Positions 4,030 through 29,183 of a stretch of DNA of 29,183 bases are shown in pieces (the first letter of the stretch is position 1; every line of letters begins with the position of its first letter). Location of the stretch: IMG/VR virus record IMGVR_UViG_3300033182_000875, positions 1 through 29,183 of that record, one strand, 5' to 3'. Origin of the DNA: a virus. A program made the translations under genes and the position numbers. The notes beneath the pieces are model-generated. The model worked only from the letters and a program-made list of their open reading frames with translations. It was not told where the DNA came from and made no database searches.

Positions 4030-4041
4030 CAATAAATATAA
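4030..4041 (-). promoter_or_regulatory. Late-class motif TTATATTTATTG (minus strand), 3 nt upstream of the ATG at 4026.
   Basis: The plus-strand sequence caataaatataa is an identical 12-mer to 15419..15430. It contains a -7-like box, TATATTTA, and no TTTG lies 19-20 nt upstream. Confidence 0.45.
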
Positions 4042-6095: not shown

Positions 6096-6103
6096 GAAAT
6101 ATA
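6096..6103 (-). promoter_or_regulatory. Weak late-class -7-like box TATATTTC, 10 nt upstream of the ATG at 6085.
   Basis: The minus strand reads TAA-ATTATATTTCAAAGTAAATC-ATG in the 20-nt gap between genes. Confidence 0.25.
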
Positions 6104-11522: not shown

Positions 11523-12025
11523 TATTCAAAATCATTGATTGGTGAGACACACCTGTCAAGAGGTGAATCCACCACGATGTTTAATGTGGTATTCCATCCA
11601 ACCAAGATGTCGTCGTATCTCTCTGAGAACGGGGTCATCTGAGCAGGAAGGGTGATGTCGTACTTTGATTCGTAGTCACCATCTGCTGTGGTCACCGCAT
11701 ACTTGAACTGAGCGAGGATGTCCTCACTGATTTGTAAGGTGTCCGAGAACAAGTCCGTTTCAATGTCGTAGTTCTTGGTGTTCATAATATCCGCAATGAT
11801 GATTTGGAACGGATACGTGATTTGTCTCTCATCACGGGTAACCACCTGAGGGATGACAAACATCAACGGGTAAATGGGTTCACTGTTTTCCGTGTTGTCC
11901 TCCCCGTCAATCTGTTGGGTAAGATAAATCAGTTGGGTGATGTCCCCCGTCCCGAAGGAGTTAATCTGTTTGTGTTTGTCCGCAAGGAGGGACAAGTCAT
12001 CAATTATGTTTTTGTAATTTATCAT
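11522..12025 (-). CDS. Hypothetical virion protein.
   Basis: 167-aa acidic ORF. Its ATG forms an ATGA overlap with the stop of the upstream -1-frame reading frame at 12022. Confidence 0.6.
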   Translation of the reverse strand: MINYKNIIDDLSLLADKHKQINSFGTGDITQLIYLTQQIDGEDNTENSEPIYPLMFVIPQVVTRDERQITYPFQIIIADIMNTKNYDIETDLFSDTLQISEDILAQFKYAVTTADGDYESKYDITLPAQMTPFSERYDDILVGWNTTLNIVVDSPLDRCVSPINDFE

Positions 12026-12797
12026 TTTCTGAATTGTTTTTCCATTTCTCTGTTTCGTTTATTGGTAAGGTCACTCATATACGTCATAAAGTTCAAGACC
12101 TCAAGGTGATGTTTTGAAACCACCCTGTCAATGTTGAGAATGTTCTCCCCTGCCAGATAGACGATTGTTGAATACCATCCAAACGGGTTTTTATCCATCT
12201 CCTCAAATTGTTCTTCGTCTGAATCATCCACCATCTGCTCAGGAAAGAGTAAGGGGTATTTTGACGTAAGATGGTTCCGATATTGTAAAAAAAAACCATC
12301 GCTCCGTTGAGGTACTTCATGGGTAATCGTCTGAAGAGTTCTGCGTTCTTCTTAATCCTGTCAATCTCATAAGGGAGGTAATCCCCGTTTTCATCAACCT
12401 CGTGATACAACATACTCATGAACAAACTGAGTTTAACTTTCCTCTCCGTCTCAGGGAGTTTTAAGTATTCGTCAATATCAACGAATTGTCCGAAGGTCAT
12501 GTTCCCCATATCAAAGAACTTGTATGTCTTTCCCGCATATTCAAAGGTCTCGTAAAACTTGGTGGACTGATTCAGGTAATAATCAATAATTCCTTCGGCA
12601 GCCGTAATGACCGATGATGCGGATGCTTGAGAGATTTCGTCCTCATCCAATCCTGTTGTCCATGAGATAAGGGATACCCCCATCTCAATGTCGTTCTTCC
12701 AGTTGATGTGGTTGGAAATCATCCCCCACGTATCCAAGGTCGGTTCTTTGACCTCGTATTCTTTTCCATCGTATTCAATGTAATGGGTTTCCTTCAT
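12022..12797 (-). CDS. Tail-assembly-chaperone-like protein. The 258-aa product requires a -1 shift at the U9 run. The 0-frame ORF as given is 12093..12797.
   Basis: The 0 frame after the U9 run becomes Trp/Arg/Gln-rich junk-like sequence. The -1 frame is open from the run and encodes plausible protein (DDSDEEQFEEMDKNPFGWYSTIVYLAG...). The -1 frame ends in an ATGA overlap with the next gene. Confidence 0.55.
12287..12295 (-). other. Slippery homopolymer (U9 on the mRNA): candidate -1 programmed frameshift site or homopolymer assembly error.
   Basis: The minus strand reads ATG GTT TTT TTT TAC. This contains the heptamer U UUU UUU in the X XXY YYZ register of the 0 frame. Confidence 0.5.
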
Positions 12798-12802
12798 ATT
12801 GG

Positions 12803-12810
12803 TAAATATA
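12803..12810 (-). promoter_or_regulatory. Late-class -7-like box TATATTTA, 5 nt upstream of the ATG at 12797.
   Basis: The minus strand reads AAATATATTTACCAAT-ATG in the 33-nt gap after terL. The box is embedded in the 10-bp palindrome AAATATATTT. Confidence 0.35.
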
Positions 12811-12830
12811 TTTGTTTTGATTGTCTCACT

Positions 12831-14057
12831 TTAATACAGGTAATAAGAACCTGTGGTTTTCTTTTGTTTGAGGGTGTTGTAACAAATCGCAAGACTCATC
12901 ACACAGTCATCGTGGTGTCCCGTCATCGCCTCATACCTGATGGTCCTTGACTTTGGGTTGTATTCAAAGGTGAAGACCTTCATCTCATTATACAGATAAG
13001 GGAACAACTCGGATGTTGGTAACTGGATGGAACGCTCATTGGACGCATAAATCAAATCTTCAATGATGTTGGTCTTACTGCTATTTGTCGTCACAAATGG
13101 GTGGACCTGTTGGTATCGTGATTTGATTTGTTCGTAGATGACATCCCCGACATTGTTGACCTCAATCCCCAACTGACAATTGTATCTCTTACAAATCTTA
13201 ATGACGTTGTCCACCAATACATCCCATGGTTTGTGTCGGTCTCGGTAGATGTTGACCACCCTGCCGTTTTGGTCCATGATGGTCAGAACCGTGTAATCGT
13301 CATTACGACCCAAATCCAATCCACCGTAGTATTTCTTCTCAGGTCTCTTGGGTTCCCATTCGTGGACCGTACAATACTCGTCCAACTCCTTGAAGACCTC
13401 ACCACCTGAGTCAATGAACTCACCCATTATCTCCTGTTTGAAGACCTCCTCAGGTAATGTCCTTCTCGCCTCTTCCAATTCCTCTGCTGAGATGAACGGG
13501 GTATCGTATGATGTTCCCCGTAAGGTGAGGTATGACTTTTGGTCGTTGTCCAATCCTCGTTGGTTCAAGGAATACAGAAAGTTCTTTCCCTTTGGAGTGG
13601 ATATGAACAACACCTTTTTCCCTTTGACCAATACTGTTGGTTTTAGGACCGTATCCCAAACTTCTGTTTTCATGAATGCCGCCTCGTCACAGATGAGGTA
13701 ATCCAAGGTGTGACCCCTGAGTCCATCAGCCCTCTCAGCAGACCTGAACAGAATCTTACTCCCATTGACAAAGGATATTTCCATCTCTGAGATGTTGGTC
13801 TGTTTGTGGACGGGTGTACCCTTGATTGCCTTATCAAGAATTTCAAACGCATTCTTGGATTGTTTGTATATGGGGGATACCCACATACATTTGGTGTTGG
13901 ACTTACTCAATCCCCATTTGAGTATCATGTTAATACCCAACATGGTCTTACCCCACTGACGACCAGTAGTTAAGACCACGTATTTCTCCTCACCTTGTTC
14001 AATGAGGTTTATCTTCTCCCTTTGGTCGGGATGGGGGGTAAATCCTTTTACCGTCAT
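12831..14057 (-). CDS. terL: Terminase large subunit.
   Basis: 408 aa. Walker A-like TTGRQWGKT and Walker B-like YLICDEAAF are present, together with a C-terminal RNase H-like nuclease motif, GGLDLGRNDDYTVLTI. Confidence 0.9.
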   Translation of the reverse strand: MTVKGFTPHPDQREKINLIEQGEEKYVVLTTGRQWGKTMLGINMILKWGLSKSNTKCMWVSPIYKQSKNAFEILDKAIKGTPVHKQTNISEMEISFVNGSKILFRSAERADGLRGHTLDYLICDEAAFMKTEVWDTVLKPTVLVKGKKVLFISTPKGKNFLYSLNQRGLDNDQKSYLTLRGTSYDTPFISAEELEEARRTLPEEVFKQEIMGEFIDSGGEVFKELDEYCTVHEWEPKRPEKKYYGGLDLGRNDDYTVLTIMDQNGRVVNIYRDRHKPWDVLVDNVIKICKRYNCQLGIEVNNVGDVIYEQIKSRYQQVHPFVTTNSSKTNIIEDLIYASNERSIQLPTSELFPYLYNEMKVFTFEYNPKSRTIRYEAMTGHHDDCVMSLAICYNTLKQKKTTGSYYLY

Positions 14058-14648: not shown

Positions 14649-14904
14649 TATTTACAATCAATCTTTTATACTCGTGATGGATTGCGTTAACCACTCGTAT
14701 CACACAGTCTTTACAGTTCCTGTTGAACGCATTTTGACTGGGGAAGAGTTGGAAGTATACGTCCTCCACGAAGTCCCATTTTTCGTTGTTCATTGACGAC
14801 ATTCTTGATGTCATTTCGTATGCTTGTTTGAGGTCATCCAAATTGACGTTGGTCAATGAGGTTATGTTGTTTCCTTTCTTTTGTTTACAGGTGTTACATC
14901 CCAT
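14602..14904 (-). CDS. Small CxxC...CxxC (putative zinc-binding) protein with a basic tail.
   Basis: 100 aa. Cys pairs lie at C3/C6 (MGCNTC) and C64/C67 (NCKDC). The gene overlaps the sigma-like gene by 11 nt and terS by 47 nt. Confidence 0.55.
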   Translation of the reverse strand: MGCNTCKQKKGNNITSLTNVNLDDLKQAYEMTSRMSSMNNEKWDFVEDVYFQLFPSQNAFNRNCKDCVIRVVNAIHHEYKRLIVNNDTKTTNGKKRTTKK

Positions 14905-15415
14905 CGTTATTGATTTTGTTTTCCCATCGTTTATTGAGTTCGGATTTGATGTTTCTGATGTATGTCCCGACGCTGTTTAAGGGGATGGTGGTTTCCTTGT
15001 GGACTCCCACCAGTGTTCCTTGTTCCAACCACAAGAGGAAGAGGTCTCTTTCAAACCAATCAAACTCTTGTAGTTCTTGGTATACCCAATCCATGGTTGG
15101 TTCTTGATTGGTATGTTCTTGTTCGTACCGTTCTTGGTTTGGATTGAACTCCGTGTGTTTATTACGGAGTTTTATCCTTTGGTATTGGAACGGTGATGTT
15201 GAAGAATTCCAATTGTTTTTGACCACCCTTATGAAGTAGTATTTCTTCTGTGTGTCGGGGACTTCATTGAACTTATCGGGTTTGTTGAGGATTTGGTATA
15301 CGACATCAGAGAAGAGGTCGTCCGTTAATGCGTCCCCTTTTGTTATCTTTGTCGTAATGTCCCTCAACTCGTCGTAATTTTTGTTGAACCAATCATTCAG
15401 ATTCATCCCATCCAT
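14894..15415 (-). CDS. ECF-like two-domain sigma factor (regions 2 and 4 only).
   Basis: 173 aa. The N-terminal stretch YDELRDITTKITKGDALTDDLFSDVVYQIL...YYFIRVVKNNW fits the region 2 pattern. The C-terminal stretch FERDLFLLWLEQGTLVGVHKETTIPLNSVGTYIRNIKSELNKRW fits a region 4 HTH. It is the first gene after the early terminator. Confidence 0.55.
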   Translation of the reverse strand: MDGMNLNDWFNKNYDELRDITTKITKGDALTDDLFSDVVYQILNKPDKFNEVPDTQKKYYFIRVVKNNWNSSTSPFQYQRIKLRNKHTEFNPNQERYEQEHTNQEPTMDWVYQELQEFDWFERDLFLLWLEQGTLVGVHKETTIPLNSVGTYIRNIKSELNKRWENKINNDGM

Positions 15416-15418
15416 TTA

Positions 15419-15430
15419 CAATAAATATAA
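15419..15430 (-). promoter_or_regulatory. Late-class motif TTATATTTATTG, 3 nt upstream of the ATG at 15415.
   Basis: Identical 12-mer to 4030..4041. It lies 19 nt downstream of the terminator at 15450..15475. No -33 TTTG is present. Confidence 0.45.
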
Positions 15431-15449
15431 GGTTTTTGTATAAAAAGAA

Positions 15450-15475
15450 AAGGGGATGACATTACTCATCCCCTT
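15450..15475 (-). terminator. Rho-independent terminator closing the early region.
   Basis: AAGGGGATGA pairs with TCATCCCCTT: a perfect 10-bp stem with a 6-nt loop. On the minus strand it is followed by TTCTTTTTA. It lies 5 nt after the stop of the 15481..15705 gene. Confidence 0.85.
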
Positions 15476-15480
15476 TGTTG

Positions 15481-15705
15481 TTAATTCAAAAGATTGTCGT
15501 CGGTGACTTGTCCGACTTCAATGTCTGTGTCTGCCAGTTCTTCATCAGGAATGGTCATGACCTTGATGAGAAGGTTGATGGGTTCATCGGTGACTTCTTC
15601 AATCTTCTTGGTTTTGTGGTTGATGATGTACATGGTCAGGTATTCGTATTCTTCCACACAGGTCATCATGAGTTGTCCGATTTGTTTCTGTTCTTTCTTT
15701 GTCAT
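15481..15705 (-). CDS. Hypothetical early protein with an acidic C-terminus.
   Basis: 74-aa ORF with an ATGA overlap to the upstream gene. No family recognised. Confidence 0.55.
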   Translation of the reverse strand: MTKKEQKQIGQLMMTCVEEYEYLTMYIINHKTKKIEEVTDEPINLLIKVMTIPDEELADTDIEVGQVTDDNLLN

Positions 15706-16436
15706 TTCGTTTGTTTGTATTTTGTGATGATTGTTGAAACGGTCCCCCTTGAGATTCCAACTTTCTTTGAGATTTTTTTTTGTGAGAGTCCTTGGTTGTA
15801 AAGTTCCATCACCTCTTCTTTGTGAATGGTTTGTTTGTTTGGTTTTGTCGTCCCGTATTTCTTGAGGATTCTTGTGATGGTTCCATTGGAGATTCCTGTT
15901 TCTTCTCTGATTTGTTTGACATCGTATCCTTTGTTTCTCAGGGCCATGACCTCGTCGTGGTGCTTTTCCACCAAGGTCACCTTTCTCTTTCTGTTCTTCC
16001 CCTTGTAGTTGGTTTGGTAACCGTGTCTTGCCAGCCAGTAGTAAATACCTGACTCAGACAGTCCGATGGTTTCCGCAACCTTTTTGTATGAGACTCCCTT
16101 CTTGAGTTCAGAGATGATGTAGTCCAAATTGTCTTCCACCTTTGAACGTCTTTCAGGAACGGGTTTCCATCCACGGTTTTCATACCAACGGTTCAATTTG
16201 TGGTAGTTAAGTTTCAAACCTTGAGAATGTCCCTTTTTGTCTCGGTTTCTTTCTGAGTATCCCAACTCCTCCACTGCGTCAGTCCAAGAGAGGTAAGGGT
16301 CTTCACACAGGAGATTGTACAACCTTCCCATGAAATCTGCTGAAAACTTTGACTGTTGAGCCAGAACGGCTCTTCCTTTGGTGATTGGTTTGTCTGACCA
16401 ACTGTTGAGTCTTTGTTGAATTTCTTTGTAGTTCAT
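15702..16436 (-). CDS. DNA-binding protein with three tandem helix-turn-helix modules.
   Basis: 244 aa. Three modules are evident: KKGVSYKKVAETIGLSESGIYYWLARHGY, NKGYDVKQIREETGISNGTITRILKKYG and NQGLSQKKISKKVGISRGTVSTIITKY. Confidence 0.7.
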   Translation of the reverse strand: MNYKEIQQRLNSWSDKPITKGRAVLAQQSKFSADFMGRLYNLLCEDPYLSWTDAVEELGYSERNRDKKGHSQGLKLNYHKLNRWYENRGWKPVPERRSKVEDNLDYIISELKKGVSYKKVAETIGLSESGIYYWLARHGYQTNYKGKNRKRKVTLVEKHHDEVMALRNKGYDVKQIREETGISNGTITRILKKYGTTKPNKQTIHKEEVMELYNQGLSQKKISKKVGISRGTVSTIITKYKQTK

Positions 16437-17329: not shown

Positions 17330-17361
17330 CAAATATACGGTATTATTTGGTATCATCCAAA
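17330..17361 (-). promoter_or_regulatory. Early promoter P1 (Bacteroidota sigma-A type).
   Basis: The minus strand reads TTTGG-N-TATATTTGTA, with 20 nt between TTTG and the -7 box. The box lies 38 nt upstream of the ATG at 17292. Confidence 0.75.
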
Positions 17362-17390
17362 TAAATCATCCAAATAAATCATCAAATCAA
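17352..17390. repeat. Tandem 13-nt repeat, about 3 copies (atcatccaaataa x2 plus the degenerate atcatcaaatcaa).
   Basis: Seen directly in the sequence. It spans the last codons and stop of the sigma gene and duplicates the TTTGGATGAT segment that supplies the -33 element of P1. Confidence 0.8.
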
Positions 17391-18156
17391 TGGATTCATT
17401 TCTTAGTCTCCTTAAGGACTTCTCCTTGATTTGTCGGACCCTTTCTTTGGTCAATCCCAATTCATCTCCGATTGCCTGAAGGGTCATTGGAGACCCAAGG
17501 TAACCGTAGTATGACTTAACCACGAACTGTTCCCTTTCATCCAGTACTGAGAAAATCTCATTAACCTTATCCTTGAGGATTTGTTCTTGGTCTTCAAACT
17601 CATCAGGAGCCTCACAGTCATGGTTGATTAAGAGGTCCTTCATGGTCCCTGTTTCCTCATCATCACCAAAATGTTTGTCAAGAGATTCTGTCCTTGGGAT
17701 ACTGTGGTATTTGTCCTCGTGGTACCAGTCGTCCATCAACGGTTGTTTCTTTTGTTTGTTGATTTCTTGTACGATATTGACCGGTAATCTGATGGTCCTT
17801 GAGTAACTGTTTAGGTAGTCCATAATGGATTGACGAATCCACCATACCGCATACGTGAGGAATCGGGTCTCAGCCGACCAGTCAAATTTATCAAGGGCTT
17901 TCAAAAGACCGTAGTTCCCTTCCGCAATGAGGTCCTCAATGGGAACCGAATTGGTTTGGAATTTCTGTGCGGTCGTAATGACGAACCTGAGGTTACCCTC
18001 AATCATTTCGTTGTTTATCTCGTCTCTCTGAGACTTTGTCAGGTCTCCTGATAGAACCATTGTCTTAAGTTCCTTTTCTCTCTCAGGAGTGACGATAGGA
18101 AGTTTACGGATGTCTCTGAGGTATTCCTCAATCCGTTCAGTTTGTAAGTAACTCAT
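17353..18156 (-). CDS. Sigma-70 family RNA polymerase sigma factor with regions 2, 3 and 4 (RpoD-like architecture).
   Basis: 267 aa. IEGNLRFVITTAQKF fits region 2.1/2.2. EDLIAEGNYGLLKALDKFDWSAETRFLTYAVWWIRQSI fits region 2.3/2.4. RTIRLPVNIVQEINK fits region 3. MTLQAIGDELGLTKERVRQIKEKSLRRLR fits region 4.2. Confidence 0.9.
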   Translation of the reverse strand: MSYLQTERIEEYLRDIRKLPIVTPEREKELKTMVLSGDLTKSQRDEINNEMIEGNLRFVITTAQKFQTNSVPIEDLIAEGNYGLLKALDKFDWSAETRFLTYAVWWIRQSIMDYLNSYSRTIRLPVNIVQEINKQKKQPLMDDWYHEDKYHSIPRTESLDKHFGDDEETGTMKDLLINHDCEAPDEFEDQEQILKDKVNEIFSVLDEREQFVVKSYYGYLGSPMTLQAIGDELGLTKERVRQIKEKSLRRLRNESIDLMIYLDDLFG

Positions 18157-18276
18157 TTACCAGTTGTTTTTGTGTTTTGTTTTTCTTGTGTATTTCTTCT
18201 TGTTCTTGTAGATGTTGGGACGAGTTGCCATCCGAATCTCTTGAAGTGTTACTTGAATTGTCTGAATCTGTTTCAT
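18157..18276 (-). CDS. Micro-ORF of 39 aa with a very basic C-terminus. It is absent from the ORF track.
   Basis: My own translation is MKQIQTIQVTLQEIRMATRPNIYKNKKKYTRKTKHKNNW. Its TAA stop abuts the sigma-factor ATG directly (TGG TAA ATG). Confidence 0.35.
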   Translation of the reverse strand: MKQIQTIQVTLQEIRMATRPNIYKNKKKYTRKTKHKNNW

Positions 18277-18296
18277 TGTAGTTGAGGTTTGTGTGG

Positions 18297-18318
18297 GGTC
18301 TCCTTACTTGAGGAGACC
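18297..18318 (-). other. RNA hairpin spanning the stop codon of the 18304..18579 gene.
   Basis: GGTCTCC pairs with GGAGACC: a perfect 7-bp stem with an 8-nt loop that contains the stop codon. No U-tract follows on the minus strand, so it is not a classic terminator. Confidence 0.5.
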
Positions 18319-18579
18319 TTCACGGGTTTGTACTTGAACGAAATCCAACTTACCTGTTGGAAGGACTTTGACCATCGCTCTGTAACGGTAGTCAAACTTG
18401 ACACGGAAGATACCTTGTCCCGCGTAGTCGTTAATCCACATCTCCTTCACATCGTAAGTCTCCTTGAGGTCGTGGAGGGTAACACCCTTTTTAAGAGTTG
18501 AGAACAAGACCTTGAATTTCTTCTGAGTTGACTTGTTCATTCCGTTAACGACTTTCTGTTGTTTCTTTGTAATTGTCAT
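18304..18579 (-). CDS. Small basic early protein with a possible RelE/ParE-like fold.
   Basis: 92 aa starting at MTITKK. The longer track ORF would swallow promoter P2. The C-terminal stretch GIFRVKFDYRYRAMVKVLPTGKLDFVQVQTRE aligns by eye with the RelE core YKIKLRSSGYRLVYQVIDEKVVVFVISVGKRE. Confidence 0.3.
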   Translation of the reverse strand: MTITKKQQKVVNGMNKSTQKKFKVLFSTLKKGVTLHDLKETYDVKEMWINDYAGQGIFRVKFDYRYRAMVKVLPTGKLDFVQVQTREGLLK

Positions 18580-18616
18580 AGTTGTTGTTTTTAGTAGTTG
18601 TTGATTGATTACATGA

Positions 18617-18647
18617 CAAATATACGACAATATTTGTAACCACCAAA
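18617..18647 (-). promoter_or_regulatory. Early promoter P2.
   Basis: The minus strand reads TTTGG-N19-TATATTTGTC. The box lies 38 nt upstream of the ATG at 18579. Confidence 0.75.
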
Positions 18648-18675
18648 ACTTTTGACCACTTTTTTCAAAAAAAAA

Positions 18676-18699
18676 AGAGGGGACCACTGAAACCCCTCT
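18676..18699 (-). terminator. Rho-independent terminator.
   Basis: AGAGGGG pairs with CCCCTCT (7 bp) around a 10-nt loop. A U10 tract follows on the minus strand (the plus-strand A-run 18667-18676). Confidence 0.85.
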
Positions 18700-18744: not shown

Positions 18745-19134
18745 TTACGACTGAAGTCGGTTGATGATGAGTTTGATTTCAGAAGGTGACAAGATGGTGT
18801 ATTCGTTTCCTTCATTTCGGTTGATGATGACCATGTCCTTGTATCCAAAGTCAGTGATGTAGAACTCACCGTAGTCAACAAGATTGTTGTCAGGGTCAGT
18901 CAATCCCTTGAGTGCTGCTTTCAAGATTTCAATGGTCTTGGGAACTGAACCGAGAATCACGGCTTCAATGTCTTGGACATAATCGTATTTTTCGTTTTGG
19001 AAGGTCAACATCACTCCGTATTCAGAGACTGAAACCATTTTGTTGTAATCGTCAGAGACATAGATGTCTTTTGATTGTCCGTAAGAGATGAATGTTGCCA
19101 AGGTCATTGCGATTGCGAAAAGTGTTTTTTTCAT
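18745..19134 (-). CDS. Secreted or periplasmic early protein with a Sec signal peptide.
   Basis: 129 aa. The N-terminus MKKTLFAIAMTLATFISYGQS shows n-, h- and c-regions and has no lipobox Cys. The gene has its own promoter and terminator. Confidence 0.65.
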   Translation of the reverse strand: MKKTLFAIAMTLATFISYGQSKDIYVSDDYNKMVSVSEYGVMLTFQNEKYDYVQDIEAVILGSVPKTIEILKAALKGLTDPDNNLVDYGEFYITDFGYKDMVIINRNEGNEYTILSPSEIKLIINRLQS

Positions 19135-19172: not shown

Positions 19173-19204
19173 CAAATGTAGGGAAAAAAAGGGAGACCAC
19201 CAAA
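19173..19204 (-). promoter_or_regulatory. Early promoter P3.
   Basis: The minus strand reads TTTGG-N-TACATTTGTA with a 20-nt spacer. The box lies 39 nt upstream of the ATG at 19134. The -33 element sits in the loop of the preceding terminator. Confidence 0.7.
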
Positions 19205-19210
19205 CTCCCT
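19190..19210 (-). terminator. Rho-independent terminator.
   Basis: AGGGAG pairs with CTCCCT (6 bp) around a 9-nt loop. A U7 tract follows on the minus strand. Confidence 0.75.
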
Positions 19211-19252
19211 AACAAAAAAAAGTAGAGATTACATTGGGGTGGTTTTAATGTG

Positions 19253-19459
19253 TTACATTGAGAATGCGATGAAACCCAAGAGACAGATTGCCTGAACGAT
19301 GAACAGACCCAAAGTGATTTTCATCACGAGATTGACATTTTTGACCATCTCAAACATCACAGGTGTGAAGTTGGGGTATTTTCTTGCCAGTTCTTTTTCC
19401 ATTTCTGAGTAAGGAGATTTTGTTGGGATTCCGTCCACGAATTTCGTTGTTTCTTTCAT
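19253..19459 (-). CDS. Small C-terminally anchored membrane protein.
   Basis: 68 aa. A soluble N-terminal half is followed by the hydrophobic stretch ITLGLFIVQAICLLGFIAFSM at the extreme C-terminus. Confidence 0.6.
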   Translation of the reverse strand: MKETTKFVDGIPTKSPYSEMEKELARKYPNFTPVMFEMVKNVNLVMKITLGLFIVQAICLLGFIAFSM

Positions 19460-19520
19460 AGTCGTTATTATTAAAGGGTTTTAGTATTTCTGTTTTTTTG
19501 TTTTGTTGTTAATTGTTATA

Positions 19521-19552
19521 CAAATATAGGGATTTATTTTTGTTCTGCCAAA
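19521..19552 (-). promoter_or_regulatory. Early promoter P4.
   Basis: The minus strand reads TTTGG-N-TATATTTGTA with a 20-nt spacer. The box lies 62 nt upstream of the ATG at 19459. Confidence 0.7.
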
Positions 19553-19830
19553 ACTTCATAAGAAAAATCGGTGATATACTCACAAAGTTCCATTTCCAAC
19601 CAGTTCCAAAGGTAATCAGTCATTTCCCCTTCATCGTTGAGTTGTTCTTCGTCAAACTCAAAACCATCAAAGGTGTATTCTGTCTCGTTTTGGAGGTCTT
19701 CAATAATTTCTTCAATTTCTTCTTGGGTGAATTGATTATCCAAGTTGTAATGACGGAAGTATTTTTCGTCAGTTAGATATTGGTATTGGATGTCGGTAAA
19801 TCGGATAGTGTAAGTCATTGTCGTTTTCAT
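19534..19830 (-). CDS. Highly acidic small early protein; candidate DNA mimic or anti-restriction protein.
   Basis: 94-98 aa. Counted from the second ATG (19818, 94 aa) there are 27 Asp+Glu against 4 Lys+Arg. The ATG at 19830 is only 9 nt from the -7 box of P5, so the mRNA is leaderless or the second ATG is used. Confidence 0.6.
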   Translation of the reverse strand: MKTTMTYTIRFTDIQYQYLTDEKYFRHYNLDNQFTQEEIEEIIEDLQNETEYTFDGFEFDEEQLNDEGEMTDYLWNWLEMELCEYITDFSYEVLAEQK

Positions 19831-19838
19831 TAGTGATA

Positions 19839-19870
19839 CAAATATAGGGAATTATTCTTGTTCCTCCAAA
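19839..19870 (-). promoter_or_regulatory. Early promoter P5.
   Basis: The minus strand reads TTTGG-N-TATATTTGTA with a 20-nt spacer. Confidence 0.75.
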
Positions 19871-20151
19871 TGTTCTTTTGAGTTTTCCAACAACATGTGA
19901 AGGAAATCTGTGAAGTTGGTGACGGTCATGTCCTTCTGATTGAAGTAGGCGTTCATCACCGCAGTCGCCGCTTTGATTCCTTTTTGTGTTGAGATGTCAC
20001 CGTTGAAGACAGGGACTTCGTCTCCTGAGACTCCGAGAATCAACATCGGGTCTCCACAACATCCACATGGATAAAGTTCAATGTCAACGACTCCATTGGA
20101 TACTTGGAACTGCTGGTTTCTGAGTTGTTTGAGTTTCTTTTGTACTGTCAT
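19852..20151 (-). CDS. Hypothetical early protein.
   Basis: 99-aa ORF containing a CGCC cluster. No family recognised. Confidence 0.55.
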   Translation of the reverse strand: MTVQKKLKQLRNQQFQVSNGVVDIELYPCGCCGDPMLILGVSGDEVPVFNGDISTQKGIKAATAVMNAYFNQKDMTVTNFTDFLHMLLENSKEHLEEQE

Positions 20152-20166
20152 GGTATTTGGTTTTGA

Positions 20167-20343
20167 TTACATTACTTTTTTGTTACCTGTCAAGATGGTG
20201 TTCTTTGGACGGTCATCAACGTACTTCTCGTTGATGTATCCCAAGTAACCTTCAGGAGTTTGGTATTCCAACATGATTGATTCTGTGAATTCCATTTTTT
20301 CAATCATTTGGTCAATTAGGATTTCAATTTCTTGTGGTGTCAT
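20167..20343 (-). CDS. Hypothetical early protein of 58 aa. It is absent from the ORF track.
   Basis: My own translation is MTPQEIEILIDQMIEKMEFTESIMLEYQTPEGYLGYINEKYVDDRPKNTILTGNKKVM. The ATG lies 28 nt downstream of the P6 -7 box, and the ORF fills an otherwise empty gap. Confidence 0.55.
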   Translation of the reverse strand: MTPQEIEILIDQMIEKMEFTESIMLEYQTPEGYLGYINEKYVDDRPKNTILTGNKKVM

Positions 20344-20370
20344 AGTCGTTGTTGTTATTTGATTACATTA

Positions 20371-20402
20371 CAAATATACGGAACATATTTGACATCACCA
20401 AA
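20371..20402 (-). promoter_or_regulatory. Early promoter P6.
   Basis: The minus strand reads TTTGG-N-TATATTTGTA with a 20-nt spacer. Confidence 0.75.
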
Positions 20403-20595
20403 CCTCAACGGAAACTTTTTCAAGTTTTTCGTCAGACCATCCTTGGAGGGATTGGAGTTTTTTCACCACTGAGACCGTGGGAACATTGAAGGTGTCTGAC
20501 TTACCTGAGGTCAAGTCCGTCAACCTGATGGTTGAACGGGACTTGTAACCCTTCGGCAATGAACGAACCATTTGGATGAGTTGTTCTCTTCTCAT
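20395..20595 (-). CDS. Hypothetical early protein.
   Basis: 67 aa from MRREQL. This ATG lies 1 nt after the stop of the upstream gene. The longer track ORF would overlap that gene by 80 nt. Confidence 0.5.
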   Translation of the reverse strand: MRREQLIQMVRSLPKGYKSRSTIRLTDLTSGKSDTFNVPTVSVVKKLQSLQGWSDEKLEKVSVEVW

Positions 20596-20596
20596 T

Positions 20597-20800
20597 TTAC
20601 TTGGAATCAATGTGTTTCTGAACGGCGTCAAGACGGTCTCCAATTTCCTTTGAGTAACCGTTCTCCACATAGTCAACCATCACGTTGGTGATTCCAACGA
20701 GTTCTTTCAGCGTGAGACATTTCTCACACGATTCTGCCCAATCCAAAACCACCTTGAGTTGAGATTGAGTCGCAATTTGTCTTTCCTTTGATTGAGGCAT
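20597..20800 (-). CDS. Hypothetical early protein.
   Basis: 67-aa ORF. Its ATG lies 48 nt downstream of the P8 -7 box. Confidence 0.55.
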   Translation of the reverse strand: MPQSKERQIATQSQLKVVLDWAESCEKCLTLKELVGITNVMVDYVENGYSKEIGDRLDAVQKHIDSK

Positions 20801-20847
20801 TTTACTGTTGTTTTAATATATTCGTTTATTACTTGAGTTTCTTAATA

Positions 20848-20879
20848 CAAAGATAAGAAAACGAAATCAAAGGGTCAAA
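20848..20879 (-). promoter_or_regulatory. Early promoter P8.
   Basis: The minus strand reads TTTG-N20-TATCTTTGTA. Confidence 0.65.
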
Positions 20880-21768: not shown

Positions 21769-22165
21769 TTGTTTGTTTTTGGAGTTAATAAATGTTTTGT
21801 TTCCTTTCCTTACCAAAAGATAACAAATCCATTTCATACTGTCAAATTGGAATTGTTGTTTGTTGTTTTTTTGTTGTGTGATGATGTATGTCATCTGTTG
21901 GAGAAAAAGGTGTCGTAAAGAAAACCCCCAAAAAGAACCAACACATTGTTCATTGTACCTCATTTACAACATGGACTATCTGGTGCAACCGGCTCTCTCA
22001 ACGGAAGTTTGGAAGGGATTTGAGACTTACCTTCATTCGGTCTGTATCGTGGTGTATTTCACCTGTTGTTATACGGTCGTCAAGGTGTCGTCACTAAGAC
22101 TGTGTACCCGTAAGCATGAAATAAATATACCCAACAAATCTTTTATGTCAATCCTTTACAAAAAA

Positions 22166-22173
22166 TATTTTTG
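22166..22173 (+). promoter_or_regulatory. Rightward -7 box TATTTTTG for the plus-strand gene pair.
   Basis: It matches TAnnTTTG and lies 54 nt upstream of the ATG at 22227. The -33 region reads TTTTA, so the match is imperfect. Confidence 0.45.
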
Positions 22174-22226: not shown

Positions 22227-22547
22227 ATGATTGGAAGTTGGAAATTAAATGAAGAGGATGTAAAGGTCATCAAGGACCTTCTCAAATTGGGTATGACCCA
22301 TCAATCCATTGGAGATATGTTCGGTGTATCACGTGAACACATTACGGCAATCAAACAAGGTCGTAGATGGAACACAGACAACCACAGTTTCACAATGAAG
22401 AAATCAAACGATTACCGTCAGTTTACAGACGTTCAAGAGCGTTTGGATGATTATGTATTTGAAGTGGATGAACCAAGGAAGGTGGAAACCATCCTCATCA
22501 AGTATTCAGACGGTACAAAGGATTTATTCAAGTCAGTCAATGGATAA
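22227..22547 (+). CDS. HTH DNA-binding protein; candidate regulator.
   Basis: 106 aa from MIGSWKL. The motif LGMTHQSIGDMFGVSREHITAIKQGRRW is typical of small phage HTH domains. It is one of only two plus-strand genes. Confidence 0.6.
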   Translation: MIGSWKLNEEDVKVIKDLLKLGMTHQSIGDMFGVSREHITAIKQGRRWNTDNHSFTMKKSNDYRQFTDVQERLDDYVFEVDEPRKVETILIKYSDGTKDLFKSVNG

Positions 22548-22881
22548 GACCTGTAACCAATGTGGTGAAACCAAACCATTGGAGTTGTTTGATAAGAACA
22601 ACAAAAACATGATTGATGGTCGTCAAGGTATCTGTAAAGGATGTCGTCATACCAATGACAAAAACAGAAGATGGAGAAATGAAAATATGACACCCATCAA
22701 CGCATCATTGGAGGAATCTTACAAAAAAGATGCGATTGAAATCCTTGAAGCACTCGGATACGATTTCAGTTCAAAGATACCCGTTCACGAGCAGTTCAAC
22801 CAAAGATGGGGAAGACTTATTGATTCCTCCATTGAGAATAACAAATCCCAAGGGCTTGAGGACGGGGATACTCGTCCTTGA
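22540..22881 (+). CDS. Zinc-ribbon (CxxC...CxxC) protein.
   Basis: 113 aa from MDKTCNQCGETKPLELFDKNNKNMIDGRQGICKGCR. It forms an ATGGATAA overlap with the upstream gene. No HNH catalytic motif is visible downstream. Confidence 0.55.
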   Translation: MDKTCNQCGETKPLELFDKNNKNMIDGRQGICKGCRHTNDKNRRWRNENMTPINASLEESYKKDAIEILEALGYDFSSKIPVHEQFNQRWGRLIDSSIENNKSQGLEDGDTRP

Positions 22882-22922
22882 TTTGTTGATAACACTTGGA
22901 GATGAACTCACTCTTTGATTCG

Positions 22923-23105: not shown

Positions 23106-23693
23106 TTAATAGTCCTTACAACATTGGTCATCCGTCGGAGAGATGTATCCACCCTTAATCCAACTCGGAGCCAGTCTGCGAGGCATTTGGTTGGTGATGT
23201 GGATACCTGAGAAGTAATTCTCTTTTGAAGGAGGCATTCCGTCCGTTGAACTCCACGAGTAATAAATCGGGAAGTCGTTCGGATTGTTCTTCAAATAGTC
23301 CATCAGGCGTTGGGCGTAAAATTCGTACCTGTCCATAATCATACTTCTCATGTATCTCATGTCAGAAGCAGATACTCCAACACCCTGTTCAGTGTTCCCA
23401 ATTATGATTCCCTTATTTTGTTGACGGGCCCAAATATCAGGTAAGATTTCATAATGGGCACGTTGTATCAAATACGGTTGGATGTAGTCCTGTAACAAAG
23501 TGGTCTCAGGACCTGTCAATGTTGAATTCTCAGCAGCGTCCAAAATGTGGTTGTACATCTTCGTACCCAAAATATTTTGAAGGCCGATATCCGAGGCCAT
23601 CTGAATTCCGCTTAACAATAACGCTTCGTCAACTCCCGCATTGATTGAAGTGAACGATTTGATTTTTGACGCCGATACAAGTAAAACTCCCAT
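23106..23693 (-). CDS. Hypothetical virion protein, possibly a head-tail connector or adaptor.
   Basis: 195 aa with a TAATG overlap to the portal gene. The helical N-terminal half resembles gp6-like adaptors. The assignment is weak. Confidence 0.3.
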   Translation of the reverse strand: MGVLLVSASKIKSFTSINAGVDEALLLSGIQMASDIGLQNILGTKMYNHILDAAENSTLTGPETTLLQDYIQPYLIQRAHYEILPDIWARQQNKGIIIGNTEQGVGVSASDMRYMRSMIMDRYEFYAQRLMDYLKNNPNDFPIYYSWSSTDGMPPSKENYFSGIHITNQMPRRLAPSWIKGGYISPTDDQCCKDY

Positions 23694-24802
23694 TATTCTT
23701 CAATTGTTATATTTCCATCGTCATCAAACAGAGTATTCTGTATGATTTCAATTTGGTTTATCTCTTTGGTTTGGAAGAACAATAACTTTTCAAATTCACG
23801 GATGATTTTGTCCTGAAGTGGTTTTACCACCGTTGACAAGAAGTGAACGTATGAGTCCACCATCTCTGCTCTTCCACCCAATTGACCCTCAGTCTTAATT
23901 CCCAACAACATTGGTGATGAGATTCTGGTGGCGGTCAATAAAGTTTGTTGGACCATATCGTTGAGTTGGATGAACATATCAGCGGACGCATTATTTGTGA
24001 ATGCGTTTACCTCAGGTGCGTGTTCTTTGTCGTCTGAGAAAGTCACCATGAATTTTCCTGCGGCTCCTGTACCTCCATACCCTTCTGAAAGGTGACGGAA
24101 GATTTGTTCTCTCTCCTCCTCACCAGGGATACCGTTGTTCATTGATACAAGAATTCCACTGTTGTATCCATTCTCCAAATTATTCAAATGGAAGTCGTGG
24201 ACAGAAATCTCAATTTCTGCCGCTTGACGACCACTAATCCATTCATTGATTGGATAATAAAATTGTCCAGGTTGATACGACTTGAAGAAGTAGACCTGTG
24301 AGGGGTCATCAGAATTCAAATCAAACGCAGGAAGTTCAACTGGTTTGAACTTACGAATATTGGACCAATCAGGAGAGAAATAATACTCCTTGACTCTGTC
24401 GTCCAAATCTGCCTTACCCGCTCTTATCTTTGAAATGTCCATATGATAGAATTCCGCAATCCCCTCACCGTCTCTCCTCAAAATAGTATTAACCGAAAAA
24501 CCGTTATGAATCACCATATCCATGGTGGCCTTTTTGAAAACATCATACACCGACTCCTGACCATTGACCATCACTCTGTTTCCATCAACTCCGTTGACCA
24601 ACATCCCTTTCCCGATGATACCATCACGAATGGAGTTAAGAGCCGAACGAAGGATTGCCGAGTAATTGTAAAGGTCAATGGAGTGTGACGGCCAGAGGTT
24701 GTCACCACCCCAATATACGTAATCCTTATTATTGATTACCTCCTCAAAAGTTGGGAGTTGTACTGAGTTGAAGTCAAATGCTTTGATGTTTAATTGTTCC
24801 AT
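23693..24802 (-). CDS. Portal protein (PBSX-like family).
   Basis: 369 aa. The N-terminal YVYWGGDNLWPSHSIDLYNYSAILRSALNSIRDGIIGKG and the C-terminal GKFMVTF...SPMLLGIKTEGQLGG patterns are typical of small portal proteins. Confidence 0.65.
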   Translation of the reverse strand: MEQLNIKAFDFNSVQLPTFEEVINNKDYVYWGGDNLWPSHSIDLYNYSAILRSALNSIRDGIIGKGMLVNGVDGNRVMVNGQESVYDVFKKATMDMVIHNGFSVNTILRRDGEGIAEFYHMDISKIRAGKADLDDRVKEYYFSPDWSNIRKFKPVELPAFDLNSDDPSQVYFFKSYQPGQFYYPINEWISGRQAAEIEISVHDFHLNNLENGYNSGILVSMNNGIPGEEEREQIFRHLSEGYGGTGAAGKFMVTFSDDKEHAPEVNAFTNNASADMFIQLNDMVQQTLLTATRISSPMLLGIKTEGQLGGRAEMVDSYVHFLSTVVKPLQDKIIREFEKLLFFQTKEINQIEIIQNTLFDDDGNITIEE

Positions 24803-24809
24803 ATACTGT

Positions 24810-24817
24810 TAAATATA
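24810..24817 (-). promoter_or_regulatory. Weak late-class -7-like box TATATTTA, 7 nt upstream of the portal ATG.
   Basis: The minus strand reads AAATTATATTTAACAGTATAT-ATG in a 37-nt gap. Confidence 0.25.
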
Positions 24818-24839
24818 ATTTTGTTACTTATCTCACGAA

Positions 24840-25954: not shown

Positions 25955-27415
25955 TTAAGTTTGTTCTGTTCTAATCGGGTCATTACCCTCTGTTGTTATC
26001 GTATCACTTCCCTCGGTCAATAAGTTATATGTTATCACCGCTGACGGAGTTGGTGTTGGCGTTAATGTGCCAGTTACCGTCGGTGTTGGTGTTAATGTGC
26101 CCGTCTGTGTAGGTGTTGGTGTTAATGTACCCGTCGGTGTTATGGACGGAGTAATAGATGGTGTTGGTGTAAAGGTTGGTGTCGGTGTAGGAGTCGGTGT
26201 TGGAGGCACACAAGTATCATAATACGTTAATGTACCGTCTCCGTTAAACTGTGCTACGTATCTTTGTCCTAAACCTCTATTAACTAAGAAGAAGTAAGTG
26301 TTGGTATCCTCATCGCCAGGTCCACATTTTTCAGTAGCATAAGTTATACTACTACCAGAGTTACTTGCCGTCCAGAACTCAGACTCGTCACTTGTATTAA
26401 AGTATAATGTAATATTTTCCGTACCAGCTTCACAGGCGTCTAACTGACTACATCTACATACATCACTGAAAGTTAAGCCACTAATACCACTTAGTCCATA
26501 ACCGTATGTTGTAGGACTATTACCCGATATAGGACCGACGTAAATATTCTTTGGTGTGTTTACATCCTTAGCCCATACCGTGCTACCAGTTGACGTTGTA
26601 CCGTCAAAGTGGTGGTCTATATAGTCGTAAGCCCAGAATATAGGTAAGAACCCTGGTCTGAAGTTGTAGTATGTTGTACCTGATACTTGGTTACCAGCCG
26701 CAGCACTATAATCCCAGTTATACCCTTTACTCAATACATCTGTTTCATCGTAATATACTTTGAATCCAGCCCACGTTGACCCTGTTGTAATCTCCTTGAA
26801 ATAAGTGTCCGTAAACACCTCGTTATACTCGTTACATAGACCTTCACCTGTAAGGGTATAAGAAAGGGTTTCAATAACATCCGTCTGTAAGTCTTTAATA
26901 TATACATCAGGGTAAGCATATTTCCATGTCCATCTTGACGCAGATGAGTTTTGGAAATTAGATTCCATACTTACCATTATACGTTCCTCGTTAATACCTT
27001 CCTCGTAGTAAATAAAGTTAGCATTATTCTCGTTGCTACTAATGTATGCGGTAAACTCGCTCGGTATAGTGTCGTCCTCTACAATGGCTCTACCCTCCTC
27101 TAACTTGTCAAAAGCATAATTAGGGTCAGTGCTATTTTCGTTAAAGGTCTCGTATACCGAATAGTAATGTTGACCCTCGTGTGGGAATCTTACAAAAGGT
27201 ATATCACCTGTGTAACCCTCAGGCTCCTCACCCTCTATGAACACAAACTCGTCGTAACGACTTGTACTTGTACTTACGTTTTTAGGGTAAAACCTCGTCT
27301 TCTCTTTACTGAGTATGTGCTCAAAAGAAAATAAATAAGAAGGGTCAGCAATAGTCTTATGTTGAGAGACCGTTACAACTAATCTGTTCTCCTCGTTACG
27401 TTTTATGTATAACAT
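25955..27415 (-). CDS. Tail-associated protein with a C-terminal Pro/Thr repeat linker and a short terminal TEG-D-I-TE repeat.
   Basis: 486 aa. The C-terminus reads CVPPTPTPTPTPTFTPTPSITPSITP(TGTLTPTPTx)x3 and then AVITYNLLTEGSDTITTEGNDPIRTEQT. Confidence 0.55.
   Translation of the reverse strand: MLYIKRNEENRLVVTVSQHKTIADPSYLFSFEHILSKEKTRFYPKNVSTSTSRYDEFVFIEGEEPEGYTGDIPFVRFPHEGQHYYSVYETFNENSTDPNYAFDKLEEGRAIVEDDTIPSEFTAYISSNENNANFIYYEEGINEERIMVSMESNFQNSSASRWTWKYAYPDVYIKDLQTDVIETLSYTLTGEGLCNEYNEVFTDTYFKEITTGSTWAGFKVYYDETDVLSKGYNWDYSAAAGNQVSGTTYYNFRPGFLPIFWAYDYIDHHFDGTTSTGSTVWAKDVNTPKNIYVGPISGNSPTTYGYGLSGISGLTFSDVCRCSQLDACEAGTENITLYFNTSDESEFWTASNSGSSITYATEKCGPGDEDTNTYFFLVNRGLGQRYVAQFNGDGTLTYYDTCVPPTPTPTPTPTFTPTPSITPSITPTGTLTPTPTQTGTLTPTPTVTGTLTPTPTPSAVITYNLLTEGSDTITTEGNDPIRTEQT
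26052..26141. repeat. Tandem 30-bp repeat, 3 copies, encoding (TGTLTPTPTx)3.
   Basis: The units at 26052-26081, 26082-26111 and 26112-26141 share ggtgttggYgttaatgtRcc. Confidence 0.85.
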
Positions 27416-29042: not shown

Positions 29043-29183
29043 ATTTTTTTTTTTGGCTTCAAAAAAGGAGGACCCCGAAAGGTCACTCCTCAATTTTTAG
29101 TTTAGTTGATTGTAACTCCTGACAATACATCAGAAAGTCCCAACCCGTCTGCGAGACGAACCATTGGTTCATCGCTGTAAGTA
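29043..29183. repeat. Terminal direct repeat, copy 2, identical to 1..141. It includes a duplicate of the terminator and of the 3' end of the 60..599 gene.
   Basis: Exact identity to 1..141 by direct comparison. Confidence 0.95.

Follow-up and report, generated by a model that had tools for sequence, protein, structure and literature searches.

A primary-like sigma factor and a divergent ECF-like sigma factor encoded in one 29-kb phage genome with two predicted promoter architectures

The viral record IMGVR_UViG_3300033182_000875 of IMG/VR, all 29,183 nucleotides of which were analyzed here as one stretch (hereafter the window), carries two genes for sigma factors, one encoding a 267-residue protein of the sigma-70 family (sigma267) and the other a 173-residue protein resembling sigma factors of the extracytoplasmic function (ECF) type (the small sigma). 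We find two putative promoter architectures in this phage, an early one with a -33 element and a late one without, and propose, with a probability that we put at about 0.45, that host sigma-A reads the early promoters, that the small sigma goes back to the ancestor of a whole group of phages as their late sigma, and that sigma267 is an accessory surrogate for sigma-A. What appears to be new is a family of small sigmas whose genes open the late operon of uncultivated Bacteroidota phages of ~25-31 kb and stand behind an invariant ATATTTA, usually after a terminator, as well as the combination of both sigma types in one genome of 29 kb.

Phage-encoded sigma factors are a classic device for timing gene expression, and RpoD-like as well as ECF-like phage sigmas have already been described. 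Transcription in the Bacteroidota is unusual, with a -33/-7 promoter code of its own, no use of Shine-Dalgarno sequences and dozens of ECF sigmas. To our knowledge almost nothing is known of gene timing in Bacteroidota phages, and a full-text search of the literature found no description of sigma-based temporal control in such a phage. Together with the sigmas, the promoters mapped here make up a compact, directly testable system, from which orthogonal sigma/promoter pairs for Bacteroidota engineering could come.

The window begins and ends with the same 141 nt, an exact direct terminal repeat (29043-29183 repeating 1-141), and can therefore be taken as a complete genome of 29,042 bp that is circular, circularly permuted or terminally redundant. 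The two sigma genes occupy 4.6% of it, (804+522)/29042, close to the 4.5% given in an earlier reading of the DNA made without database searches (the sequence-only reading). They are as follows.

17353..18156, minus strand: gene of sigma267, with an ATG start; 267 amino acids with a weakly matched region 1.2, regions 2.1-2.4 and 3.0, a 3.2-like linker and regions 4.1-4.2, and with ~20 residues of region 3.1 deleted.
14894..15415, minus strand: gene of the small ECF-like sigma; 173 amino acids with sigma-2 and sigma-4 only; first gene of the late block; the start annotated by the Joint Genome Institute (JGI) is the second ATG, at 15406.

On the evidence of profiles, alignment and predicted fold, sigma267 is a genuine member of the sigma-70 family, primary-like and intact except for region 3.1. 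It passes the Pfam models Sigma70_r2 (61.7 bits against a threshold of 24) and Sigma70_r4 (50.5 bits against 24.1) and the superfamily model TIGR02937 (115.8 bits against 42.9), and it is matched by PHROG 351, 'RNA polymerase sigma factor', at 1.9e-54 and by the solved chains of SigA, RpoS and RpoD, in sequence (up to 2.5e-38) as well as in fold (Foldseek, E 1.9e-12). The NCBIfam models of RpoS and RpoD match it at E values of 1e-43 to 1e-51, with scores far under the equivalog cut-offs (173.7 against 378.7 bits for RpoS and 164 against 354 for the C-terminal model of RpoD). Region 1.2 is weak, scoring 14.5 bits against a Pfam threshold of 22, the segment being 33% identical to the host region 1.2, and a precomputed PF00140 match is found on many close homologues.

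Alignment with eight Bacteroidota sigma-A proteins of 287-289 amino acids, taken from genome loci, shows that sigma267 retains region 3.0 (RTIRLPVNIVQEINK) and an acidic 3.2-like linker, that 20-21 residues of region 3.1 are missing, and that 6 residues are inserted ahead of region 2.1. The core-binding motif DLIAEGNYGL of region 2.2 is intact, and the segment for melting and -12 recognition, YAVWWIRQSI, is that of Bacteroidota sigma-A. The recognition helices read LTKERVRQIKEK in sigma267 and LTRERVRQIKEK in Bacteroidota sigma-A, the identity being 60% over the region 2.3-2.4 helix and 74% over the region 4.2 helix, which is LTKERVRQIKEKSLRRLR in sigma267. The aligned sequences of the phage clade to which sigma267 belongs share conserved residues for DNA melting and recognition in regions 2.3, 2.4 and 4.2. 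Given how closely the recognition helices of sigma267 resemble those of Bacteroidota sigma-A, the protein is predicted to read host-type -7/-33 promoters and to have no new specificity. The AlphaFold2 model, built from a shallow alignment of 12 sequences, consists of sigma-2, a region 3.0 helix, an unstructured stretch at residues 138-188 (predicted local distance difference test, pLDDT, below 50) and sigma-4, and contains no folded sigma-3 domain (regions 3.0-3.1).

The sequence-only reading had described this protein as a full-length sigma-70 factor, primary-like rather than ECF, with signatures of regions 2.1-2.4, 3 and 4.2. Its primary-like character is borne out by the Pfam, TIGR02937 and sigma-A comparisons, and the signatures of regions 2.1-2.4 and 4.2 are indeed there. 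Region 3 is present in part, as region 3.0 and the 3.2-like linker, and with ~20 residues of 3.1 missing and no folded sigma-3 in the model the term 'full-length' has to be given up. Of the three Pfam profiles named in that reading as a check, Sigma70_r2 and Sigma70_r4 match, while Sigma70_r3 is absent from the families reported for the protein.

The best database match of sigma267, 68% identical, lies on a 1.4-kb contig (P0002) with the same flanking TATATTTG promoters, the only other contig that shares sigma267. A further 118 listed clusters are 49-53% identical to it, with lengths of 258-288 amino acids and contigs of up to 311 kb; the nearest relatives on large contigs (~51% identity) come from contigs of 150-310 kb. 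Relatives at ~40% identity occur on IMG/VR viral contigs of 23-298 kb, and the scan of genome contigs gave, among the matches listed, only cellular sigma-A genes of the Fibrobacteres-Chlorobi-Bacteroidetes (FCB) group, at 34-39% identity. A phylogeny against host and phage sigmas, which the sequence-only reading had suggested, was computed by neighbor-joining without support values. Sigma267 and its 68% relative form a pair that is sister to the large-contig clade, within a phage-only radiation apart from the sampled cellular FCB sigma-A proteins. A recent capture of sigma267 from a host was considered and dropped, the nearest relatives being phage contigs and the branch standing apart from the sampled cellular sigma-A. 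This phage-only, sigma-A-derived clade without region 3.1 appears to be new, and a full-text literature search found no experimental study of any of its members. Like sigma-A of the Bacteroidota (Bacteroides fragilis type), sigma267 is short and lacks region 1.1; the two also have in common the motifs of regions 2 and 4, similar helices and 34-39% identity overall, and sigma267 differs by the deletion in 3.1, the 6-residue insertion, an R-to-K change in region 4.2, its region 3.0, its phage-only clade and its sub-cut-off RpoD scores.

The neighborhoods of two of the large-contig relatives hold SbcCD-like gp46/47 genes, a primase, an exonuclease, Amidase_2, DnaJ and many unknown genes, a gene content by which they are the replication module of a large T4-like phage. 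On the contigs L081 (7433-8816) and L084 (3810-5190) a DUF6576 gene always precedes the sigma267-like gene, the pair standing behind TATATTTG, and the sigma267-like gene is located downstream of the gp46/47-like SbcCD genes. This position corresponds roughly to that of the late sigma gene 55 in T4. In large-phage contigs that have only sigma267-like genes, TATATTT is among the most enriched upstream heptamers (13 against 0.75 expected, and 18 against 1.5). The composite TTTG-N-TAnnTTTG was tried as an enriched motif of these contigs and rejected; it is the TATATTT core that is enriched.

Almost all genes of the window are on the minus strand, the only plus-strand genes lying within 22228-22918. 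The early block runs on the minus strand from ~22.1 to 15.5 kb, and the late block, with the small sigma gene first, from 15.4 kb down to position 60, after which it wraps to 29,036-23,106. The early promoters fit the published consensus of Bacteroidota sigma-A, a -33 TTTG and a -7 TAnnTTTG (PMC6847099). Seven minus-strand sites of the form TTTG-N19/20-TAnnTTTG are found, all intergenic and all in the early block, with -7 elements that start at 20855, 20378, 19846, 19528, 19180, 18624 and 17337; matches to the composite motif number 10 against 0.8 expected, which supports the early TTTG/TAnnTTTG promoters of the sequence-only reading as canonical -33/-7 promoters of Bacteroidota type. The predicted signals and small cistrons of the early block are these.

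18617..18647, minus strand: early promoter of the sigma267 operon; -33 TTTG at 18647-18644, 19 nt, -7 TATATTTG at 18624-18617 (direct reading and motif scan).
18667..18696, minus strand: terminator of the preceding early unit, a GGGG..CCCC hairpin and a T-run, just upstream of the sigma267-operon promoter.
18157..18582, minus strand: two small cistrons ahead of sigma267, of 92 amino acids (18582-18304) and 39 amino acids (18276-18157).
17330..17361, minus strand: early promoter of the next unit; TTTG at 17361-17358, 20 nt, TATATTTG at 17337-17330; predicted to drive the genes of an AAA-like protein, a protein with multiple helix-turn-helix (HTH) domains and a 74-residue protein.
19173..20878, minus strand: five further early promoters, TTTG-N20-TAnnTTTG, with -7 elements at 20855-20848, 20378-20371, 19846-19839, 19528-19521 and 19180-19173.
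22122..22151, minus strand: leftmost (eighth) early promoter, TTG(ACA) and, 19 nt after the TTG, TATATTTA; a -33 is present but the terminal base is A.
15441..15476, minus strand: strong intrinsic terminator closing the early block, AAAGGGGATGA..TCATCCCCTTT followed by TCTTTTT.

Sigma267 is accordingly placed, as had been stated from the sequence, as the third cistron of an early unit, in the order promoter, 92-residue open reading frame (ORF), 39-residue ORF and sigma gene. Neither of the two small cistrons has a family match. The -33 element of the next unit's promoter falls within the last sigma267 codons. The leftmost promoter belongs to a divergent control region (21964-22172) with back-to-back promoters, the plus strand carrying TATTTTTG and the plus-strand genes beginning from this region; on the minus strand of the same region TTGACA is followed 16 nt on by TATATT, which is a near-perfect pair of E. 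coli-type -35/-10 elements too. Gene leaders, read directly, are A/C-rich and without a Shine-Dalgarno motif, and therefore fit a Bacteroidota host (PMC6847099); the promoter type also points to such a host.

In the late block the only promoter-like elements are of the form (T)ATATTT(A/C); they lack a -33 and each lies within 0-10 nt of a start codon, at sites 15429, 12810, 6103, 4040 and 24817.

15422..15429, minus strand: element of the small sigma gene, TATATTTA, no -33, 6 nt ahead of the first ATG.
12803..12810, minus strand: late TATATTTA, no -33, 5 nt ahead of the ATG of the gene at 12797-12093; preceded by an A-tract.
24810..24817, minus strand: late TATATTTA, no -33, 7 nt ahead of the portal ATG.
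4033..4040, minus strand: late TATATTTA, no -33, 6 nt ahead of the ATG (4026) of the gene after the tape-measure-like gene.
6096..6103, minus strand: late TATATTTC, 10 nt ahead of the tape-measure-like ATG; a TTG lies 21 nt upstream, making the site borderline.

All 12 minus-strand TATATTT heptamers are intergenic, in a fraction that makes up 5.1% of the genome, against 0.65 expected, and none of 5000 composition-matched shuffles reaches 12; in coding sequence on that strand ~3 are expected and none is seen. Direct reading of the short late intergenic gaps revealed no other repeated motif. In Flavobacterium johnsoniae the transcription start lies 4-5 nt past the -7 element, the -33 element is often weak or unclear and the sequence near -18 is AT-rich (PMC6847099). 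Host promoters nearly always have a G at -5 (PMC6847099), which is systematically missing from the late elements. Because the spacing between element and ATG is short and conserved and starts lie 4-5 nt past -7 in F. johnsoniae, the late mRNAs would be leaderless or nearly so. We take the two predicted promoter architectures, early with -33 and late without, to be real. That the late elements are mere translation signals is a minor possibility: the heptamer stands at variable distances of 13-57 nt ahead of the small sigma genes, and it also forms part of early promoters with a -33. Thus far the sequence-only reading is upheld, which had seen the small sigma gene just after the early terminator behind another type of promoter motif and had proposed a TATATTT(A) class that includes this gene; the class marks late genes as well.

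GTGAGA occurs exactly 13 nt upstream of TATATTTA at two late sites (12803-12829 and 24810-24836, minus strand) and at one orthologous site of the related locus L146 (~3003-3030). Neither the remaining late sites nor the promoters of the small sigma genes show the arrangement GTGAGA-N13-TATATTTA, and GTGAGA may be an upstream promoter element or chance.

We conclude from profile matches and predicted structure that the small sigma belongs to a very divergent family of ECF-like sigma factors, probably phage-specific. The protein alone passes no curated Pfam or NCBIfam threshold, scoring 29.4 bits against TIGR02937 (cut-off 42.9, E 5e-7) and 14.8 bits against Pfam r2 (threshold 24, E 0.025), and the PHROG families contain no match for it. 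Its alignment to TIGR02937 runs from end to end (residues 6-161 on profile positions 3-162 of 165), the same model is matched by 24 of 24 members of the family (best 2.7e-10), and the Bacteroidota ECF subfamily model is matched by 21 of the 24. The two-domain ECF architecture, sigma-2 and sigma-4 with no region 1.1 or 3, is found in it as well. The AlphaFold2 model (pLDDT 83.7) has two helical domains, with a disordered linker (residues 85-107) between them. Nearly all of its best Foldseek matches in PDB are ECF-type sigmas or ECF-sigma-like domains, with probabilities up to 1.00, weak scores (E 0.009-0.1, template modeling score, TM, ~0.3) and end-to-end alignments, of ~165-175 columns to SigL, SigH, SigW and SigE; a TM of ~0.3 is expected because the two domains are flexibly linked. 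The family-wide profile matches and the fold thus support the ECF-like sigma that the sequence-only reading had placed at 14894..15415.

Sequence searches of PDB with the small sigma, by single sequence or profile, found no sigma, the sole match being a LysR HTH at E 0.001, and hhalign of the family alignment against a single sequence of E. coli sigma-E gave a probability of 0.2%, a value that is uninformative with a single-sequence template. At E <=0.001 an exhaustive profile search for the family returned 1,188 cluster representatives, 237 of which have E <=1e-10, and most are 160-200 amino acids long; among ten distant members compared with Pfam, one passes a sigma domain threshold (Sigma70_r4_2). 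No anti-sigma factor for the small sigma was identified. The family appears to be previously undescribed; its member in the window passes no curated threshold and has no PHROG family and no relative in GenBank phages.

Related phages were located via the small sigma and via the large terminase (TerL), and the window was compared with 19 other distinct small-sigma loci. TerL of the relatives is 55-63% identical to that of the window and their late block is syntenic. The small sigma gene heads the late block in every relative. Its start is preceded, at a distance of 10-67 nt, by an exact ATATTTA in each of the 19 other loci as well as in the window; in most relatives a hairpin and T-run are found just upstream of the gene, usually before the ATATTTA. 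The sequence around this heptamer is not alignable among the loci, and the base before it (-12) is not conserved. Late elements keep their distances as well: 5 nt ahead of the ATG of the post-TerL gene in 8 of 9 phages (including L146, L141, L160, L168, L171, L177 and L148), 7 nt ahead of the portal ATG in four (the window, L144, L161 and L171) and 6 nt ahead of the ATG of the gene after the tape-measure gene in two (the window and L156). No homologue of sigma267 was found in any related locus examined; in L144, L149 and L158, which cover the early region completely, Pfam detects no second sigma there. Because the relatives share the two-architecture design and the small sigma and none has sigma267, the former would be ancestral to the group and sigma267 an addition in the lineage of the window.

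Two candidate rules of promoter choice were tried and rejected. Whether the -7 element ends in A or in G is no mark of sigma specificity, the A form being present in -33 early promoters of L149 and at window position 22129. Nor is ATATTTA reserved for the small sigma, as some relatives use it in their early regions too.

In the model that we favor, host sigma-A would start the early units, the sigma267 operon among them. The small sigma, most likely the ancestral late-gene sigma of the whole phage group, would drive the -33-less ATATTTA promoters including its own, as ECF sigmas commonly do, and the first small sigma would be made through leakage past the terminator or weak recognition by host sigma-A, so that the switch has two steps, host sigma-A and then the small sigma. 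Sigma267 would be a lineage-specific addition from the phage-only, sigma-A-derived clade, made early from a host-consensus promoter; its holoenzyme would most likely read the same TATATTT-core promoters as host sigma-A and supplement or replace sigma-A on phage DNA, rather than form an indispensable middle tier with a specificity of its own. The phage, in this reading, has no polymerase of its own and uses that of the host; PHROG and Pfam searches found no recognizable RNA polymerase among the window proteins.

Several points weigh against this model. The assignment of promoters to sigmas is drawn from sequence, and the ECF call of the small sigma from sub-threshold hidden Markov model (HMM) scores and the weak Foldseek scores (E 0.009-0.1) given above. 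ATATTTA is one base off the host -7 consensus, and in L149 and L173 the early promoters have the form TTGG-N18-TATATTTA, that is, the ATATTTA core together with a -33. Promoters with an A-tract near -18 and no -33 resemble ordinary F. johnsoniae promoters (PMC6847099) and could be read by host sigma-A or by sigma267. Autoregulation by the small sigma would need a trigger. As for sigma267, kept recognition helices do not prove identical specificity: the R-to-K change in region 4.2 is present in 7 of 7 aligned phage-clade sequences, and region 3.0 reads N-I-V-Q-E in sigma267 against N-K-I-G-S in the host.

It is also conceivable, if unlikely, that host sigma-A reads all promoters of the phage, those without a -33 being weaker or in need of an activator such as the multi-HTH protein or the region-4-like protein described below, and that the phage sigmas act mainly on host genes or as modulators. 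This would suit the single -7 core, (T)ATATTT, that runs through the phage promoters, the enrichment of the same core in phages with only one or the other sigma, the several HTH proteins that Pfam finds encoded in the early block, and the frequent lack of a clear -33 in F. johnsoniae promoters, which are AT-rich near -18 (PMC6847099). However, the G at -5 that is near-invariant in the host (PMC6847099) is systematically replaced in the late elements, and a role on phage DNA is favored by the small sigma being strictly conserved as the first gene of the late block, with an invariant heptamer before it.

We regard as similarly unlikely the three-tier cascade put forward in the sequence-only reading, where host sigma-A reads the early promoters, sigma267 then redirects the polymerase to the -33-less TATATTTA class including the small sigma gene, and the small sigma finally takes part in late expression. 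Such a cascade would be in line with the predicted early expression of sigma267 from a host-consensus promoter and with the terminator and -33-less promoter that stand before the small sigma gene. The loss of region 3.1 and the phage-clade changes in 3.0 and 4.2 could relax the need for a -33 or a G at -5, and the large-phage relatives of sigma267 lie beside gp46/47 homologues on contigs with TATATTTA elements ahead of genes. Its middle step is nevertheless not supported by the comparison of phages: relatives without sigma267 keep the ATATTTA of the small sigma and the late elements, and because they keep the same arrangement a sigma267 step is not needed in the group. Moreover, the recognition helices of sigma267 are near those of host sigma-A, the terminal A or G does not discriminate, and no third promoter class is left for the small sigma. 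Were it true, this would be the smallest genome known to us with a three-tier cascade and the first such cascade that we find described for Bacteroidota phages, and it too would yield largely leaderless late mRNAs. A wider form of the idea, which we hold to be improbable, is that the sigmas of the sigma267 clade, lacking region 3.1, are a widespread class in Bacteroidota viruses that initiates at -7-only ATATTTA promoters with no -33 and no G at -5, making a true three-tier cascade here.

We give very little credence to sigma267 as a competitor or decoy that binds the host core, displaces host sigma-A or ECF sigmas and shuts down host transcription with no productive recognition: the core-binding region 2.2 is intact, the missing sigma-3 domain might impair initiation and the gene is accessory within the phage group, but a pure decoy would not need the residues of regions 2.3, 2.4 and 4.2 that are conserved across the aligned phage-clade sequences.

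The favored model, with a host sigma for early genes and a divergent phage sigma for late ones, has parallels in known systems. The closest functional analogue of the small sigma is gp36 of phage phiEco32, a distant sigma homologue that, with its partner gp79, serves middle and late promoters having mainly a short -10-region motif, the host primary sigma reading the early genes (PMC12276001). Both proteins are small and very divergent, with sigma-2-like and sigma-4-like domains, but they have no detectable sequence similarity (gp36 in PDB entry 9m7y stands at Foldseek rank 31, E 0.52) and their hosts belong to different phyla. A gp79-like partner was not identified here, the region-4-like protein being a candidate for that place. 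T4 gp55 is another small divergent late sigma, and the T4 late promoters, TATAAATA, are 8 bp long, -10 only and host -10-like. The late element without an upstream element is alike in the two phages. The C-terminal domain of the small sigma, however, is sigma-4-like and has no counterpart in gp55, and no clamp or gp33-type system like that of T4 late transcription was identified in this phage. In Bacillus phage SPO1, the textbook example, gp28 and then gp33/34 are successive phage sigmas that replace host sigma-A (PMC13401047). Each SPO1 tier has its own consensus, while here one core motif in two architectures is visible and one of the two sigmas is dispensable in related phages. Sigma267 in turn recalls the RpoD-like sigmas of 'group 2' (T4-like) jumbo phages, including the Prevotella Lak megaphages, which resemble cellular RpoD and are presumed to steer the host polymerase (PMC7824862). 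Lak sigmas match it at 29-30% identity, and among such large-phage sigmas its nearest relatives are on contigs of 150-310 kb, whereas sigma267 itself is in a 29-kb genome.

Besides the two sigmas the window encodes a possible partner and structural and packaging proteins, identified by PHROG and Pfam searches for the last three features below.

22228..22547, plus strand: small HTH protein resembling sigma-70 region 4 (Pfam Sigma70_r4 21.4 bits, under threshold; synteny in relatives).
12831-14057: large terminase (TerL).
23693-24802: portal.
4061-6085: tape-measure-like protein.

A homologue of the region-4-like gene directly follows and overlaps the small sigma gene in L141 (5556-5843), L144 (10486-10710), L154, L155 and L157; in the window the gene has been relocated to the plus strand, where a TATTTTTG of its own (22165-22172) precedes it. 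Because its homologue adjoins the small sigma gene in relatives, the region-4-like protein may work with the small sigma as partner or co-factor. A candidate regulator of transcription is a 244-residue early protein with three or four tandem HTH domains (HTH_23, HTH_28 and HTH_7), encoded at 15702-16436 on the minus strand by the second gene of the unit downstream of sigma267.

A protease-like domain was also matched among the window proteins. By GenBank phage searches the phage has no cultured relative: megablast of 8 kb of the window gave no match, TerL reaches at most 30% identity in tblastn, and tblastn with the small sigma found nothing.

Three further observations concern other genes of the window. 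Tandem repeats of 30 nt lie within a 1013-residue gene and related repeats of 24-30 nt within a 486-residue gene (window 6361-6510 and 26053-26199), and these stretches are probably repetitive segments of fiber or tail proteins. Directly after the terminase gene, the ORFs at 12022-12234 and 12093-12797 (minus strand) overlap by 142 nt in different frames, an arrangement kept in most relatives that cover the region and one that may reflect a programmed frameshift or an internal start; in several relatives ATATTTA occurs inside the first of the two ORFs, 131 nt ahead of the next start. Finally, the early protein of 129 amino acids encoded at 18745-19134 (minus strand) has a signal-peptide-like N-terminus, MKKTLFAIAMTLATFISYG, and may be secreted or a lipoprotein, for example for superinfection exclusion.

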